From positions 32,156 to 96,155 of the forward strand of contig JAJZZD010000002.1 of NCBI GenBank assembly GCA_021797745.1: 64,000 nucleotides of DNA, given 5' to 3'. The notes beneath the pieces are model-generated. The model was not told the origin of the DNA and searched no databases. It saw only the letters and a program-made list of their open reading frames with translations. The DNA is from Candidatus Micrarchaeota archaeon. GTDB lineage: Archaea; Micrarchaeota; Micrarchaeia; Micrarchaeales; CABMGC01. Of the stretch, positions 20,326 through 25,951 are shown piece by piece (the first letter of the stretch is position 1; every line of letters begins with the position of its first letter). Made by a program: the position numbers and the translations under genes.

Positions 20326-21057
20326 TTGCTTAAAGTTAAAAAAACAATCTCGAATGATAAGATGCGGAATAGCAAAGAGTTTCGTGCAAAGCCCATTTCT
20401 GTCGTAATTCCGACCCTTAACGAAGAAGGCAATATAGCAAACGTGATTAGCGGGATAGGAAAAGTGCTGAGAAATTACAAGTACGAGATAATAGTAGTGG
20501 ATGGCCATTCAAAAGACAAGACAGTAATGATTGCAAAGAGGCTTGGAGCAAGGGTAATCTACGACAATCTGGGAAAAGGAAGCGCACTGGTCAGAGGTTT
20601 AAACAAAGCTGGCGGAGACGTCCTTATTTCAATGGACGCCGATATGTCCAACGAACCGAAAGAACTCATAGCGCTCATAACTAACATAGAAAAAGGCTAT
20701 GACATGTGCGCAGGCTCGCGCTTCATGAAAGGCGGCGGCTCAGAAGACATTCCTTTCATAAGGAAAATAGGCAACAAGTTTTTTGTGCATCTAGTAAATG
20801 CGATATTCCGCGCGCAATTCACCGACATGTGCTATGGATACCGGAGCTTCAGCAGAACGGCATTCGGAAAACTGCGATTAAAAGAAAAAGGATTCGGGAT
20901 AGAAACTGAGATAAACATACAGGCCGTGATGGCTGGGCTGAAAATAAAGGAAATACCGAGCTTTGAAAAGAAAAGAGAGTCAGGCCAGGGCAAGCTAAGT
21001 ACTGTAAGAGACGGGTACGTGATACTCAAAACAATAATGAAAAACATGGGAAGATAA
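20326..21057 (+). CDS. GT2 glycosyltransferase (dolichol-phosphate sugar synthase-like)
   Basis: SVVIPTLNEE, VVDGHSKDKT, MDAD, GSRF, TDMCYGYR. Confidence 0.92.
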   Translation: MLKVKKTISNDKMRNSKEFRAKPISVVIPTLNEEGNIANVISGIGKVLRNYKYEIIVVDGHSKDKTVMIAKRLGARVIYDNLGKGSALVRGLNKAGGDVLISMDADMSNEPKELIALITNIEKGYDMCAGSRFMKGGGSEDIPFIRKIGNKFFVHLVNAIFRAQFTDMCYGYRSFSRTAFGKLRLKEKGFGIETEINIQAVMAGLKIKEIPSFEKKRESGQGKLSTVRDGYVILKTIMKNMGR

Positions 21058-21068
21058 TCAAGAGGGCC

Positions 21069-21209
21069 TTATTCGTCTGCATAGACGATGCGCCATACAT
21101 TGTGCCTTTCCGGAACCAATTTCACCGGCCTTTTATCATTCCTTACTGCTTCTTCGCGCATTTTTTCGATGCTTTTCCTGTTCATCACTTCTTCCAGCCA
21201 ATTTCTCAT
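21069..21209 (-). CDS. Small protein (46 aa), not in ORF track
   Basis: Translated by hand: MRNWLEEVMNRKSIEKMREEAVRNDKRPVKLVPERHNVWRIVYADE; ATGA overlap with the stop of 21206-21487. Confidence 0.55.
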   Translation of the reverse strand: MRNWLEEVMNRKSIEKMREEAVRNDKRPVKLVPERHNVWRIVYADE

Positions 21210-21487
21210 GCAATCACCTTTGCATTCTTGAAAGTGTAATGACTTTCACACGCAGAGCAGCAGTTTGAATTTTTTGCATATATTTCCTTCACGAATTTTT
21301 CCGCAACAGCTTCATCGTTTGATTCGGCAACTACGACAAATCCGAAATCGCCGCTTGTTATGTTCACCTCCTTCACTCCGCTTATCATTGAAATCCTCAT
21401 GGCAAAGTCCTTTGCATTCAGTTTTTCCTTCGGTTTGAGAAGGAAAAAGACTCGATGCTTATGTTTGTTGTTTTTCTTGCTGCGCAT
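21206..21487 (-). CDS. Stand-alone Lrp/AsnC ligand-binding (RAM)-like domain protein
   Basis: FFLLKP...FA..I..ISGVKEVNITSGDFGFVVVA matches the AsnC C-terminal domain pattern; no HTH. Confidence 0.7.
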   Translation of the reverse strand: MRSKKNNKHKHRVFFLLKPKEKLNAKDFAMRISMISGVKEVNITSGDFGFVVVAESNDEAVAEKFVKEIYAKNSNCCSACESHYTFKNAKVIA

Positions 21488-21678
21488 CAGACCACATCGG
21501 ATCTATCAAAACTGCAATCACTAAACTGGCGCACAGGGTGGGTGTGGGGACAGAATAACCGCTGTGCGCCAGATAAGCAGGAAGTGGGTGGGATGGTGGG
21601 AACTGGAAAATTTGGTAATCTTATGCAAAAGGAGTGAGGGAAACGAATAACGTGTATTTCGTTTTTCAAACCGTTCAT
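21487..21678 (-). CDS. Possible 63-aa leader ORF or structured leader RNA
   Basis: GGTGGGA SD-like element upstream, TTTTAAATA box at ~21715-21723, TGATG coupling to the next gene; atypical Pro/Cys-rich composition. Confidence 0.4.
   Translation of the reverse strand: MNGLKNEIHVIRFPHSFCIRLPNFPVPTIPPTSCLSGAQRLFCPHTHPVRQFSDCSFDRSDVV
21526..21572. repeat. Perfect 11-bp inverted repeat (CTGGCGCACAG...CTGTGCGCCAG) with 25-nt G-rich loop
   Basis: Read directly from sequence. Confidence 0.85.
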
Positions 21679-21927
21679 CTTCCCACCATCTAAATGTATT
21701 ATGACTTTTGTTTTATTTAAAAAGGAGAGGAAATAACAGTCAGGAAAAGATCGACTGTCTGAAAAATTATGATTTATTTCTGCATAAAGCTGTAAAGTCA
21801 GAAGTTTAACCCGTTGCGTTTACCCTCCGCGTAAATAACGTGTTTGACGAGAGAAAACGATGTCTATTTTCATGACAATGCTTAAATAGGCAAAAATTCA
21901 CAATATATGTTGTAAGGTGGGAATACG

Positions 21928-23364
21928 GTGGATTTGCCTGCGGGGATATCGAATAAACTGCATGAGCTGAAAGGCCAATACGACCACTACATCGAGGTCA
22001 AGAAAATACACAACAGCTACTGCGTGTTCCAGTCCATTACCAAATACGACAGGAAAAAGAAGAAGTCGAAGAAGGTGACCCATTATCTCGGCACGATACA
22101 CGAAAGCGGCGAATTTGTTCCTGCAGTTCACAGGTCGAAGTTCGAGAATGTGGAGAACGGCAGCGGAAATGAAACCGCAGAAGAAGGTACCGTTAAAATA
22201 AAAGACAACGCCGAAGAGAGAGAACTTGATAACAAGATACTCACAGCATTGAGCATGAACGCAAGAATCGAGATGCCAAATCTTGGCAAACTTGTCGGCG
22301 TGAGTGAAGGCACGGCGAGGAACAGGGTCGAGAAACTAAAGAAGAAGTACGGTATTTCTTCTACTGCATTCATTGATAGGTCAAAACTTGGCTATTTTAC
22401 CTTTATCTCATTAATAAAATTTAAAGACAGCGTCCCGAATCTAGGCGGATTAAAGGAGGCATTGGAAAATGAACCGAGAATTCTGCTTGCCATGTTCACA
22501 AAAGGTGACTATGACTTGATGCTACTTTTTATTGCCGAAGATAATAACGCAGTATCTGATTTTACCTGGCATTTAAGGAAGGATACTGTCCTTGCGAAAT
22601 ACAACATGAAATTCTACACATCGTCATTTTTCAAGCAGTACGGCAATATACCGATACGACAAAAAACGTTTGAACTTCTGAGTGATAAGGCATGGCATAG
22701 AACAAAGGAAAATCCAAGGCCGTTGCCAGGAGAATTAACACAAAGAGAAGTGAATGTGCTGAAAGAGCTTGCTTATGATGGTTTTGCAAAATTCATAGAT
22801 ATAGATAGAAAATATGGGTACGAACCTGGCGCGGCATACCACACATACACAAAGTTAAGAGAAAGAAACGTGATACGGAGGATGACTATAACCATACGTA
22901 ATTTGCCGATAAAATACTGCTCTGTACTGTTAATGGAAGACTCAAATGGAGTGGAAATGCTAGAAACTAGGGCAAATCTTCTTAAAGAGATAATAGACGA
23001 GACAGAGCATGAAATTAATAAGTATGCACTTGTAGGAGAGGTAGAACTGCCTAAAGGCTTTATTTTCATAATGCCCATCTTCGATGAAAATGAACTCATG
23101 CATACACAAGAAGAACTTCAGATAAAAATAAAAGGCAGAGAGATAAAAAGCCTAATTGCAACAAATATATTTGTTGGAACTCTCTGCTATGAAAGATATG
23201 ACAATACTGATATTTTATGTAGCCAGTATCAGATATTGGCAAATGAGTATAAGGAAGTGCCCTGGATAGAGCCCAAAAACTACTTTGATAAGTTTGCCTT
23301 TAAGAAAACTGAAAAATTTGACCTTATTAAGCCACCAAAACCTGTGAAGCACATAATTAACTGA
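21928..23364 (+). CDS. Large tandem Lrp/AsnC-family regulator with extra N-terminal domain
   Basis: LDNKILTALSMNAR..MPNLGKLVGVSEGTARNRVEKL (HTH), GDYDLML (RAM domain), second HTH LTQREVNVLKEL..DG...F..I, second RAM-like domain; GGTGG SD. Confidence 0.82.
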   Translation: MDLPAGISNKLHELKGQYDHYIEVKKIHNSYCVFQSITKYDRKKKKSKKVTHYLGTIHESGEFVPAVHRSKFENVENGSGNETAEEGTVKIKDNAEERELDNKILTALSMNARIEMPNLGKLVGVSEGTARNRVEKLKKKYGISSTAFIDRSKLGYFTFISLIKFKDSVPNLGGLKEALENEPRILLAMFTKGDYDLMLLFIAEDNNAVSDFTWHLRKDTVLAKYNMKFYTSSFFKQYGNIPIRQKTFELLSDKAWHRTKENPRPLPGELTQREVNVLKELAYDGFAKFIDIDRKYGYEPGAAYHTYTKLRERNVIRRMTITIRNLPIKYCSVLLMEDSNGVEMLETRANLLKEIIDETEHEINKYALVGEVELPKGFIFIMPIFDENELMHTQEELQIKIKGREIKSLIATNIFVGTLCYERYDNTDILCSQYQILANEYKEVPWIEPKNYFDKFAFKKTEKFDLIKPPKPVKHIIN

Positions 23365-23388
23365 TGCTATCGCTAACCTAAAACAAGA

Positions 23389-23421
23389 TTAGCCGTTCCC
23401 ATTTCCTCCTTCTCCTACCAT
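23389..23421 (-). CDS. Putative micropeptide MVGEGGNGNG (or small RNA)
   Basis: TTGGTAATCTT-ATG...GGC TAA; TTTAAA box ~31 bp upstream of the ATG; paralog at 23957-23998. Confidence 0.5.
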   Translation of the reverse strand: MVGEGGNGNG

Positions 23422-23449
23422 AAGATTACCAATGATATTTCAACGTAAC

Positions 23450-23508
23450 AGTTTAAAAAGGTATTGAAGACGCTTTTGTTGTAGAATAAACACTGCATTA
23501 TGCCTCAT
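23450..23508 (-). promoter_or_regulatory. Promoter-like 59-bp repeat, copy A
   Basis: Ungapped 44/59 match to 24587-24645, including identical CTGCATTATGCCTCAT and AGTTTAAAA. Confidence 0.65.
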
Positions 23509-23938
23509 GATTGTTGAAACGCATATCAATCTTCTTCGGGAGATAATAAGCGATACAGAGCAGGGAATCAACAAATACGCGCTTGTCGGTGATATTGAAG
23601 TTCCGAAAAGGGTCATTTTCTTCATGCCTGTATTCGATGAAAACGAGCTTGCACAAACACAAGAAGAAATGCAAAGAAAGCTAAAGGGCAGAGAAATAAG
23701 AAGCTTGATAGCTACAAATGTAATTGTAGGGGACTTTTGCTATAAAAGATTCGACAATACGGATATTTCTTGCAGTCAGTATCAGATACTGGCAAATGAG
23801 TACAAGATAGTTCCATGGGTGGAACCAAAAAGTTATTTTGACAAATTCGATGCATTAATGCATAAAAGCTCAGAACCGATAGAATTACCTAAATTAAACA
23901 TAAAGAGTAAATTAAATTACAAAATTAGCGAGATTTGA
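23507..23938 (+). CDS. Orphan paralog of the C-terminal domain of the 21928-23364 regulator
   Basis: About 70% aa identity by eye over ~113 aa, no indels or stops, many synonymous changes. Confidence 0.75.
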   Translation: MIVETHINLLREIISDTEQGINKYALVGDIEVPKRVIFFMPVFDENELAQTQEEMQRKLKGREIRSLIATNVIVGDFCYKRFDNTDISCSQYQILANEYKIVPWVEPKSYFDKFDALMHKSSEPIELPKLNIKSKLNYKISEI

Positions 23939-23956
23939 ACACTTTGCTCTGACGTT

Positions 23957-23998
23957 TTAGCCTCCGGAGGCGCCGCCTGCTTCTCCTTCTCCTAGCAT
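23957..23998 (-). CDS. Putative micropeptide MLGEGEAGGASGG (or small RNA)
   Basis: Same TTGGTAATCTT-ATG leader and GGC TAA end as 23389-23421; TTTAAAA box ~32 bp upstream. Confidence 0.5.
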   Translation of the reverse strand: MLGEGEAGGASGG

Positions 23999-24068
23999 AA
24001 GATTACCAATTATACATGGAAAAGTAGGCTTTTAAACCTTGCCTTACCCCTCGGCAACCGTTATTTTT

Positions 24069-24560
24069 TTACCTGTTTAAAGGTTTTTCCCAGACATAAA
24101 CACGTCGCATCCTGATTTTTCTTCTTAGCATTCTTATACGCTTATATCCGAGTTTTTTGAACATATCGTTTGATATGACATTACCTACCCTTACTCTGCA
24201 CTGTATCTTGTCCCAGCGCCTGGCTGGCTCGATTTCGAAGCTTCTAACAAGCAGTGTCCCGATTCCTTTGTGCCTATAGCTTTTTTTTACGGCAATCCAT
24301 GTGATCCAGCACACGCTGGGTATGGACGGATAAAGATCTGCTACAGCAATGCCGGCCATCGTGCCGCCGACCGTCGCTATCCTAAAGATAGACCCGCCGC
24401 GTCTCATCAAACGTTCTATATTTTCTGGAGAGTAGTCCTCTTTGTTTCTGAGTATATCACGCGGCGTATAATATGCCGCTAATCCTTTTATGACATTTAG
24501 CAGTAGCGAAGAGGCCGCCTTGACCTCAGATTGCTTAAGTTCTCTTATTGCTACTTTCAC
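24069..24560 (-). CDS. GNAT family N-acetyltransferase
   Basis: WIAVKKSYRHKGIGTLL acetyl-CoA motif, N..S..MFKKLGY; start placed at GTG 24560. Confidence 0.88.
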   Translation of the reverse strand: MKVAIRELKQSEVKAASSLLLNVIKGLAAYYTPRDILRNKEDYSPENIERLMRRGGSIFRIATVGGTMAGIAVADLYPSIPSVCWITWIAVKKSYRHKGIGTLLVRSFEIEPARRWDKIQCRVRVGNVISNDMFKKLGYKRIRMLRRKIRMRRVYVWEKPLNR

Positions 24561-24586
24561 GCAATCAATACCTACTTCGCCATAAA

Positions 24587-24645
24587 AGTTTAAAAGTGTA
24601 GCAAGTAAGATTTTGCAGTATACTAAGCGCTGCATTATGCCTCAT
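24587..24645 (-). promoter_or_regulatory. Promoter-like 59-bp repeat, copy B, upstream of the GNAT gene
   Basis: See copy A; TATA-like box ~29 bp upstream of the GTG. Confidence 0.65.
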
Positions 24646-24736
24646 TTTTCAGCCAGAGCCAAAGGCAGACTGATAGGCGGATATTTCTGTATTTGAAACT
24701 AGAACTGAGAAAAATACACAAGGCATTGCTGCTGAA

Positions 24737-25951
24737 TCAGTCGACGAACAGCTTCGCGAAGACCTTTGCGTCAGTCAGCATGTCATCGATATGCGCGTAT
24801 TCATTCGGGCTGTGGGCAACCTCCTCTATCTTTGCCCACACAACTGCTGGCCAGCCCTTGTACCTGAAAAATGCAGCAACTGTGCCCCCGCCTATTCCCA
24901 CAAATTTTGCCTTTGTTCCATTTACCGATAAAATGGATTTTTTAAGCAGCTTTGAAATTTCTGATTTTGGACTTGTAGGTTTGGCTGAATCTGCCCTGTT
25001 AAAAACGTCTATACTTATTTTAACGCCTTTGAAATCCTTTCCTTTCGCAATCCTTTGTACATCGGAAAGCACGCTGTCGAGGCTATATTCGGGCAACACC
25101 CTGCAGTCTATGTAAAATACCTCAGTACCTGGAATTATGTTGACACTGTCGACGTTTTTCTCATGCTTGGTCATTTCAAATGTAGAACCTGGCGCAATCT
25201 TGAACAACTTATTTCTCTTAGTATATTTCTTGTGCAGGTAAGCGTCTACTTTTTCGAGGAACTTTACAGAATACCTGAAGGCATTCTTCCCCATATGCGG
25301 TATGCTTGCATGCACCTGTTTTCCGTGAACTGTTATTTTCAGCCAAAGCGCGCCTTTTTCTGCTATTTCTATTTCGTCTCCTTTTGAATTTCCAGAGTCT
25401 GGCACAAGGTACATATCATTCTGCTTGAATATGCTTTCCTTAATAAGTTTCTTTACCCCGTATTCGCTTCCGAGTTCTTCGTCAGCAACAAGCGCGATAC
25501 CGTAATTGTATTTTATATTGGCTCTTGCTTCCTTTAGCGCCTTAAGCGCGAACATTGCAGAGATTACGTCCTGCCCGTTGTCGCTCGTGCCCCTGCCATA
25601 TACCTTTCCTCCAATTACCTTGGCTTGGTATGGATTGGTCTTCCACAACTTTATGTCTCCTTCAGAAACGGTATCTATGTGCGGCATTATCCACAATGTT
25701 CTTTTTTTATCACCGAAAACTCCGATTACGTTTGAACGGTCCGTTTTTGTAGAATCTTTGTAAGAGTATATTTTAGTGTGCAGACCCCAGCCTTCAAGTA
25801 CCTTCTTCAGGAATTCGGCGCGCTTCTTTTCCCCCGTACCACCACTTAGCGGAGAAACTGATTTTATGGCTATCATTTTTGACATGGTATTTATCATTTC
25901 TGGCTTGTAACCGTCTATTTTCTTAATTATTCGACTAAACTCTTTTCCCAT
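24737..25951 (-). CDS. M20 family metallohydrolase (DapE/ArgE-like)
   Basis: HIDTV, YGRGTSDNG, DEE.GS, AEKG..W, GKQVHAS.P, GGGT, AHSPNEY. Confidence 0.93.
   Translation of the reverse strand: MGKEFSRIIKKIDGYKPEMINTMSKMIAIKSVSPLSGGTGEKKRAEFLKKVLEGWGLHTKIYSYKDSTKTDRSNVIGVFGDKKRTLWIMPHIDTVSEGDIKLWKTNPYQAKVIGGKVYGRGTSDNGQDVISAMFALKALKEARANIKYNYGIALVADEELGSEYGVKKLIKESIFKQNDMYLVPDSGNSKGDEIEIAEKGALWLKITVHGKQVHASIPHMGKNAFRYSVKFLEKVDAYLHKKYTKRNKLFKIAPGSTFEMTKHEKNVDSVNIIPGTEVFYIDCRVLPEYSLDSVLSDVQRIAKGKDFKGVKISIDVFNRADSAKPTSPKSEISKLLKKSILSVNGTKAKFVGIGGGTVAAFFRYKGWPAVVWAKIEEVAHSPNEYAHIDDMLTDAKVFAKLFVD

Follow-up and report, generated by a model that had tools for sequence, protein, structure and literature searches.

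The window analyzed here is a 64,000-nucleotide stretch of DNA from a Candidatus Micrarchaeota archaeon, and the element of interest is a 14-nucleotide (nt) repeat that links the two ends of a small regulatory cassette. On its minus strand the repeat forms the predicted 5' ends of two tiny glycine-rich micro-genes, and its perfect complement is found in the leader of a gene transcribed divergently from the regulator that lies between. From the sequence, the cassette is a multi-copy one consisting of a small gene with a structured leader of ~200 nt, a regulator with tandem Lrp/AsnC units, and at least one convergent micro-gene with a TATA-like box of its own. On the evidence presented below, the repeat is real and specific, and in at least two cassettes it is under selection. 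It would be explained most economically by a pairing in trans between the start of the micro-mRNA and the leader, which would either mask the translation start of the micropeptide or remodel the leader. This proposal is tentative and falls somewhat short of being probable.

Three exact copies of the 14-mer occur in the window, namely one on the plus strand at positions 21612-21625 and two on the minus strand at 23419-23432 and 23996-24009. No further matches are found in the window, even with two mismatches allowed. Shuffling of the window gives an expectation of 0.62 matches, and a count of three was reached in none of 100 shuffles. A repeat search returned a perfect 15-nt inverted pair (21612-21626 and 23995-24009) and a looser one of 31 nt with 74% identity (21612-21642 and 23402-23432). 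Both the pattern and the repeat searches thus confirm the copies noted in the original prediction, including the extension to 15 nt at 23995-24009. The further loose similarity claimed for their surroundings proved weak, the ungapped identity of the flanks outside of the perfect cores being 77 of 266 positions, or approximately the random expectation.

The genome from which the window derives comprises 806,443 bases in nine contigs and is 90.6% complete, with the window lying on contig C1. The frequency of the 14-mer in it had been named as a check, and the motif is indeed rare: with up to one mismatch there are six copies, the three of the window and three on contig C4, and a reversed-pattern control gave no matches genome-wide. 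The layout on C4 is the same as that in the window, with one plus-strand copy 5' of a regulator paralog and minus-strand copies 3' of it. A fourth downstream unit on C4 carries the 14-mer with one more change. When a 12-nt core with one free position is used, eight copies are observed in the genome (three on C1, four on C4, and one on C9). In the cassettes C1 (that of the window) and C4b, the core alone (12-16 nt) has been kept perfectly at both ends while the surroundings have diverged, which argues for selection on the core rather than neutral decay. The C9 copy at ~43393 (L138:1094-1105) is located ~23 nt after a TATA-like box and opens an unrelated open reading frame (ORF) of 126-137 amino acids, which is followed by a 152-residue paralog. 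This locus may be a further target or another user of the same translation start; a Pfam scan of the C9 ORFs with the core revealed no significant family.

Both minus-strand copies of the 14-mer appear to represent the entire short 5' untranslated region (UTR) of a micro-mRNA, with a near-consensus ribosome-binding motif, together with the start codon. In archaeal promoters the distance from the TATA box to the transcription start is well established. As read from the sequence, the match begins 20-24 nt past a TATA-like box in all six micro-genes that match their own upstream regions. Transcription from an archaeal promoter is expected to begin at this distance, and hence the match essentially coincides with the 5' UTR. 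The proposal that the 5' ends of two micro-transcripts are perfectly antisense to the divergent transcript is borne out in that the complementarity is exact and specific, and the plus-strand copy at 21612 lacks a TATA box, as had been stated. The transcripts would be short units with predicted promoters of their own. Rather than plain small RNAs (sRNAs), they would correspond to conserved micro-ORF genes in which the 14-mer serves as 5' UTR and start codon.

We infer that the micro-ORFs are real, translated micro-genes. The convergent arrangement is found behind all six regulator paralogs of the genome as well as behind relatives in other genomes. A heuristic detector was employed that required 4-20 codons, at least two glycines, a glycine content of at least 25%, and a TATA-like hexamer 22-75 nt upstream, within a range of up to 280 nt past the regulator stop codon. 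Sixty-six of 75 loci had sufficient flanking sequence. Downstream of the regulator, a micro-ORF on the convergent strand was detected at 31 of these 66 loci and one on the other strand at a single locus, whereas upstream there were two loci each for the plus and minus strands. Random windows of the genome gave eight hits in 2000. It is the positional enrichment, not the glycine content, that constitutes the evidence here. All four glycine codons are in use, and close micro-ORF paralogs are distinguished by in-frame insertions. In other genomes, the ATG of the micro-ORF has, 4-6 nt upstream, pentamers that are enriched 4.8-6.4-fold before 540 long ORFs of the window's genome, from which the ribosome-binding consensus was derived. 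The micro-genes of the latter genome display a one-letter variant of the enriched motif. No 16S rRNA was found in this assembly, so the anti-Shine-Dalgarno sequence could not be read. The encoded micropeptides are rich in glycine, with aspartate, glutamate, and asparagine, and have 7-13 codons (5-18 residues as encoded at the widest). Micro-gene 2 repeats micro-gene 1 directly over 32 nt with 94% identity. A type I toxin-antitoxin system was considered and rejected, given that the micropeptides have no hydrophobic stretch, unlike the small hydrophobic membrane toxins of such systems.

The partner of the micro-gene 5' ends was originally taken to be the mRNA of a 63-residue ORF at 21487-21678. 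This ORF is unconserved and was rejected as a gene, for a tblastn search of the genome and 30 homologous loci found only the ORF itself. The region is instead, judging from this lack of protein relatives and from two stems (P1 and D2) that change in sequence yet keep their pairing, RNA-like and not protein-coding, and corresponds to a structured 5' leader belonging to the gene for the small RAM-domain protein. This leader has a minus-strand TATA-like promoter that is conserved among paralogous cassettes. The antisense site is positioned ~70-85 nt into the leader, flanked by the local hairpin P2 and by the 3' arm of P1, the long-range stem, in a stretch predicted to be mostly unpaired. Its mean unpaired probability is 0.63 as compared to 0.43 for the leader as a whole, and in all six leaders folded the site is more accessible than the average (0.54-0.75 versus 0.36-0.49). 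A stem equivalent to P1 is present in the minimum free energy (MFE) folds of the C1, C4b, and C9 leaders, the sequences of which differ.

Hairpin D2 is found, within this genome, solely in the leaders of its six cassettes. In addition to the window copy, these are L007:3250-3301, L139:1162-1213, L140:50-91, L141:48-86, and L142:52-90. The hairpins have three different stem sequences and fold with z scores of -3.8 to -5.7, none of 200 shuffles folding as well in any case. Three of the four stem imperfections are, as read from the sequence, wobble-compatible on the minus strand only. A MAFFT/RNAalifold analysis misaligned two of the six hairpins (-5.4 kcal/mol), and single folds were used instead. 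Because the arms change while the loop is constant, the pattern is that of an RNA hairpin and not of a protein-bound DNA palindrome. D2 is thus a candidate protein-binding RNA element. An Rfam scan of positions 20500-25000 gave no matches at E ≤1. Nucleotide searches of 117 other genomes of the family gave a marginal match in one genome only for the leader (21487-21715) and marginal matches in two genomes only for micro-gene 1 (23375-23470); the one such match inspected, L147, is ordinary sequence. At most loci and across genomes, also where there is no antisense site, the leaders display many short G-runs on the regulator strand, such that the leader RNA would be C-rich.

Whether the upstream site and the downstream micro-genes co-vary at homologous loci had been put forward as a second check. 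For this purpose 135 cassettes were collected, and the start of each micro-gene (-22 to +8) was compared with its own and with every other upstream region. The comparison covered the 128 loci of the 135 for which 620 nt or more of upstream sequence was present. Six of 84 micro-ORFs matched their cognate region over 11 nt or more; among 10,668 non-cognate comparisons there were 83 such matches, some of them between paralogs that carry one and the same motif. The complementarity of this seed to the leader exceeds chance, as is characteristic of a trans-encoded base-pairing small RNA. Two of the six cognate matches are those of the window (14 and 15 nt), one is on C4 (16 nt), and three are in another genome of the family, G007. 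In the C4 case, four nucleotides past the start codon that are its own extend the complementarity. G007 carries two other motifs, one of 12 nt in loci L057 and L074 and one of 11 nt in L016. Relative to the regulator start, the upstream copy lies at -261 and -252 (12 nt) and at -306 (11 nt) in G007, and at -317 and -265 in the window's genome. Complementarity of 14-16 nt is common to C1 and C4, the regulators of which are 33% identical and the flanks otherwise unalike. By duplex energy the same six micro-genes stand out, along with a wobble-rich 24-nt candidate, L077, in a third genome; 7 of 42 had z ≤-2.6 and a rank of 0-3 of 71. Co-variation is thus seen for three motif pairs at five loci in two genomes, plus one candidate, and is absent for the other 78 of the 84 micro-ORFs. 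The refuting condition named in the original prediction accordingly gives a mixed outcome, the 14-mer being rare in the genome and an upstream/downstream match being absent from most homologous loci.

A comparison of L057 with L074 reveals a conserved frame. On one side it is composed of the small gene, the leader, and the leader promoter, and on the other of the micro-gene promoter and the 5' UTR, ending at the ATG. The two loci differ in the regulator gene and, together with it, in the coding part of the micro-ORF.

On the basis of these data, it can be envisioned that the 5' UTR and start codon of the micro-mRNA would pair in trans with the leader site over 12-16 nt. Such pairing would hide the translation start of the micropeptide and/or open the local hairpin of the leader, and in this way the amount of micropeptide made would be tied to how strongly the small RAM protein is expressed. 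What the sequence shows directly is the repeat and its rarity, the conservation of the micro-ORF class, the structural signals of the leader, and co-variation at a few loci; the transcription starts, the translation of the micro-ORFs, the pairing itself, and the direction of control are all predicted. Of the three options entertained in the original prediction, trans pairing remains the best reading, with the amendments that the supposed sRNAs would be micro-mRNAs seeded by their own translation starts and the target a non-coding leader.

Several observations weigh against this scheme. The 78 micro-ORFs mentioned above display only background matches of 5-9 nt, and the 60 loci added last contributed no new matching cases. 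In the window's own genome the cassettes C4a, C5, and C6 have no complementarity, and in C9 the site persists in the leader, the micro-gene of that cassette having drifted to a match of 8 nt. Two cassettes of G007, L054 and L067, have decayed matches. Since the flanks of L057 and L074 are near-identical within one genome, the independent motif pairs number approximately three rather than six. Outside of the cores, wobble-compatible transitions (33) are not in excess over incompatible ones (31), and with transitions neutral and flank identity random, the sequence does not separate RNA pairing from identity of DNA sites. The extended duplex of 34 bp has an energy of -41.9 kcal/mol, a value that may owe much to the composition of its strands, one purine-rich and the other pyrimidine-rich. 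Confidence in trans pairing is held down because most relatives lack a match and because a shared DNA site and an evolutionary relic compete with it.

According to the first of these competitors, the copies represent a DNA site for one protein, with an operator at the micro-gene starts and an auxiliary site in the leader. Either the cassette's own regulator or a shared factor would bind there, possibly looping out the intervening 1.8-2.4 kb. Archaeal Lrp-type repressors often bind over the transcription start, and the micro-gene copies of the 14-mer do span the predicted one. Given the neutral flank statistics, moreover, identity of DNA sites explains the matches as well as pairing does. We nevertheless consider this unlikely. 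No dyad symmetry is apparent in the 14-mer as read from the sequence, and the upstream copy is predicted to lie ~70-85 nt inside the transcribed leader rather than in a promoter. C1 and C4b share the 14-mer, yet their first and second helix-turn-helix (HTH) units are 43% and 38% identical, respectively, and their N-terminal domains 25% identical, which is no closer than for paralogs lacking the motif. The nearest relative of C4b is L057, which has a different motif and shares it with the distant L074. In a FastTree phylogeny without bootstraps, comprising 127 of the 135 regulators (eight were dropped on account of stops, short length, or partial matches), the matching cassettes are scattered, and at least three changes are needed. 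The site, in other words, does not co-vary with the DNA-reading parts of the regulator. Being scattered on the tree and independent of HTH identity, the motif is part of the cassette's non-coding frame and not of the regulator, as expected if two non-coding ends need only match each other. The operator option of the original prediction is weakened accordingly as regards the cognate regulator; a shared third factor is not affected by this argument.

The second competitor holds that the upstream copy arose by an old inverted duplication of a micro-gene and survives as a relic that has no present role in pairing and was conserved by another local constraint or by recent exchange of flank modules. 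The 31-nt stretch at 21612-21642, with its 74% identity to micro-gene 1, makes the upstream copy resemble an entire micro-gene in a degenerate state. Within genomes, exchange or homogenization of cassette flanks occurs, matches decay in C9, L054, and L067, and most cassettes manage without one. What a relic does not readily account for is the retention in C1 and C4b of nothing but a perfect core of 12-16 nt at both ends amid diverged surroundings, nor the occurrence in G007 of the same arrangement with other motifs at the same relative position. A relic, too, is in our view improbable.

Another possibility, regarded as quite doubtful, is that of a panhandle in cis. Read-through of the micro-gene terminators would produce a long minus-strand RNA antisense to the regulator, and the motif at its 5' end would pair with the complement 1.8-2.4 kb downstream, marking the RNA for processing or stabilizing it. 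The micro-genes, the antisense strand of the regulator, and the leader do follow in that order on one strand. Short T-runs after the micro-ORFs and the conserved promoter of the leader itself speak against such a transcript.

The last option of the original prediction, namely a mobile element, or a segment that a site-specific recombinase flips, with the repeats as its inverted ends, found no support and is highly improbable. It is true that inverted repeats of 14-15 bp flank the regulator gene and that many members of the family are situated at contig ends, a position typical of repeated DNA. The enclosed gene has an Lrp/AsnC fold, however, and among the seven ORFs scanned there is no transposase or recombinase. 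The copies are old paralogs with 30-35% identity, and no direct repeat is seen just outside of the arms (read from the sequence). Hairpin D2, the small gene, and the micro-gene promoters all reside outside of the repeats, and in G007 the near-identity of the flanks continues beyond the upstream repeat. A related strain is collinear over 21526-24100, and no inversion joints were detected in the contigs of four sequencing runs, although contigs hide rare forms. An insertion sequence or transposon with terminal inverted repeats was rejected on the grounds of the absence of a transposase among the ORFs scanned, the copies not being near-identical, and the missing flanking direct repeat; an invertible DNA switch was rejected for want of joints and of a recombinase, with the same reservations as to contigs and ORFs scanned.

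The related strain, represented in runs X2 and X3, is ~97% identical to the window. Among the differences listed, nine fall at 21561-21613, including a T to G change at 21613, the second base of the 14-mer, and none fall at 21614-21671, which contains the core together with the remainder of the antisense stretch; this span is only 58 nt, and the hint is a weak one. The similarity ends at 21526, inside hairpin D2, with other sequence to the left, as if the small-gene module had been exchanged. At the opposite end of the cassette, a direct repeat of 73 nt (23436-23508 and 24573-24645; 73% identity, the last 16 nt identical) brackets the 143-residue ORF, micro-gene 2, and a GNAT acetyltransferase gene at 24069-24635. 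A 67-nt contig of run X3 departs from the window at 23508 and resumes with the sequence just past 24645, which hints at the existence of a strain without the 1.1-kb block between the repeats.

The features of the cassette are listed in Table 1.

Table 1. Features of the cassette in the window, with assignments predicted from the sequence.
Feature	Positions	Strand	Description
Small stand-alone RAM-like gene	21206-21487	-	93 residues; divergent from regulator; AsnC_trans_reg E 5.6e-4, below Pfam cut-off
Structured 5' leader of small RAM-domain gene	21488-21691	-	fold -60.8 kcal/mol; 5' end placed from TATA-like box at ~21714-21723
Hairpin D2	21521-21577	-	stem co-varies, loop conserved; 6/6 cassettes of the genome; inverted repeat I3
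Long-range stem P1	21592-21690	-	21592-21602 pairs with 21680-21690; encloses P2 and antisense site
Antisense site	21612-21626	-	complement of micro-gene 5' UTR and start codon: 14 nt for micro-gene 1, 15 nt for micro-gene 2
Local hairpin P2	~21641-21665	-	MFE fold
Regulator	21928-23364	+	478 residues; N-terminal β-rich domain and two tandem Lrp/AsnC units (HTH plus RAM-like)
Micro-gene 1	23389-23432	-	14-mer 23419-23432, then 10-codon glycine-rich ORF 23389-23421 including stop, then short T-run
TATA-like box of micro-gene 1	23452-23459	-	near-palindromic; read from sequence and repeat search
Orphan copy of regulator C-terminal domain	23507-23938	+	143 residues; 72% identity over 113 residues; direct repeat of 300 nt, 74%, spacing 553
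Micro-gene 2	23957-24009	-	15-mer 23995-24009, then 13-codon glycine-rich ORF 23957-23998 including stop; T-run after ORF
TATA-like box of micro-gene 2	24029-24037	-	read from sequence

The regulator is, according to its model, an N-terminal β-rich domain followed by a tandem, pseudo-dimeric Lrp/AsnC arrangement. The HTH_AsnC family (PF13404) matches with 35.2 bits against a Pfam cut-off of 27, and the RAM domain with a score of 19.7, which is below the cut-off of 25. Residues 99-212 match feast/famine regulators of solved structure. Residues 246-440 are a diverged second copy of the unit, the HTH part of which was identified by hhalign with 93% probability and an E-value of 2.9e-7. The AlphaFold model, built with the 54 sequences of alignment A1 (from 115 eligible), has a predicted local distance difference test (pLDDT) score of 90.6. 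Its best fold match is the fused Lrp-like protein NirDL (4ch7, E 5.7e-13), followed by approximately thirty Lrp/AsnC chains. The protein thus appears to possess both the AsnC-type winged HTH and the RAM fold by which Lrp/AsnC, or feast/famine regulatory proteins (FFRP), are defined; its DNA binding and ligand response are putative. The 143-residue ORF and micro-gene 2 constitute a second tandem unit. The TATA-like box of micro-gene 1 is situated ~48 nt before this ORF and may be a bidirectional promoter for both. Tandem micro-genes are frequent, with remnants of the regulator C-terminal domain between them and up to four to six units elsewhere. Arrays of two to six glycine-rich micro-ORFs lie 3' of the regulator at L030, L134, L031, L032, L099, L113, L127, L130, and L132, with such remnants in between wherever the spacing is 300-600 nt, and resemble the orphan-module arrays of polymorphic systems.

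Six full-length regulator paralogs are encoded in the window's genome, with identities of 28-35% apart from one pair at 73%, and a divergent small RAM-like gene accompanies five of the six. At E ≤1e-40 the family is present in 93 of 301 genomes of the phylum. It occurs in 33 of 53 genomes of one taxonomic family and in 59 of 75 of a second from the same order; with this query it was found in none of 172 genomes from 28 other families. Note that an unpublished genome, G050 (locus L022), is included in the locus and family tallies, that L022 was left out of alignment A1, and that a second unpublished genome, G034, enters only one family tally; none of the individual claims depends on either genome. 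The number of copies ranges from one to five or more per ~0.8-Mb genome. For many family members a contig end is no more than a few hundred bases away (for example in G053, G055, G059, and G261), an indication that assemblies break at the conserved flanks of the cassette and that copies are undercounted. The sole named relative of the 478-residue protein belongs to Candidatus Micrarchaeia, and the window promoters are of the archaeal TATA type. DNA of the window is found in mine-drainage, tailings, and sediment metagenomes of three studies. A metagenome scan with the 478-residue protein gave 96 pattern matches, none of which were confirmed. In the literature searched by full text, including PMC5498576, the cassette, the micro-ORFs, and the pairing are not described; supplementary gene lists may hold them.

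The DPANN archaea are host-dependent and have genomes of ~0.8 Mb, for which several copies of one cassette are a sizeable investment that points to an important regulatory function. To our knowledge, regulatory RNA pairing and small proteins are almost unexplored in these organisms. If the pairing occurs as proposed, the design would be an unusual one in which the ribosome-binding region of an mRNA doubles as a riboregulator seed. The exact complementarity offers a concrete handle on function, consisting of two short RNAs and one protein. A more far-reaching scheme, and one that we think quite improbable, is that of a peptide-sensing module in which the tandem Lrp protein would be the receptor and its variable C-terminal RAM-like domain would recognize a cognate glycine-rich micropeptide. 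Receptor and peptide would diversify together, leaving orphan arrays of domain plus peptide, and the antisense site in the leader would set a threshold by masking the translation start of the peptide. The binding of the micropeptide to the RAM-like domain is pure conjecture. If true, an Lrp-type regulator would for the first time have a micropeptide made by ribosomes as its ligand, and the cassette would be a candidate signaling system in host-dependent archaea.

With respect to known systems, the regulator shares the HTH_AsnC and RAM fold with the Lrp/AsnC (feast/famine) family, which likewise includes cases of a small RAM-only protein encoded alongside, and with NirDL (PDB 4ch7) it shares the fusion of two Lrp-like units. 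It differs in its additional N-terminal β-rich domain, which has no assigned family here, and in being confined to two families of one order among the genomes searched. The convergent glycine-rich micro-ORF of the cassette is not, in the literature searched, among the features reported for Lrp loci. The immediate adjacency of a regulator gene and a tiny peptide gene is reminiscent of the RRNPP and arbitrium systems, although here there is no TPR receptor and no signal peptide or pro-peptide. Similarly, as in receptor-peptide pairs, the coding part of the peptide varies with the regulator while the expression signals are conserved, as observed for L057 and L074. The downstream orphan copies of the C-terminal domain, each with a peptide gene of its own, recall the orphan-module arrays of the Rhs/CDI systems.

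The closest parallels to the proposed pairing are the dual-function sRNAs of bacteria, such as SgrS/SgrT and RNAIII, which also encode a small peptide, and the archaeal sRNAs that are seeded at their 5' ends. In common with these, the cassette would have a short transcript from a predicted promoter of its own, a 5' seed of 12-16 nt directed to the leader of another gene, and a tiny ORF. In contrast to them, the putative pairing is conserved in only a minority of cassettes, and the partner would be the leader of a neighboring gene in the same cassette. Finally, the seed here coincides with the ribosome-binding region and start codon of the micro-ORF, such that pairing and translation would exclude each other.

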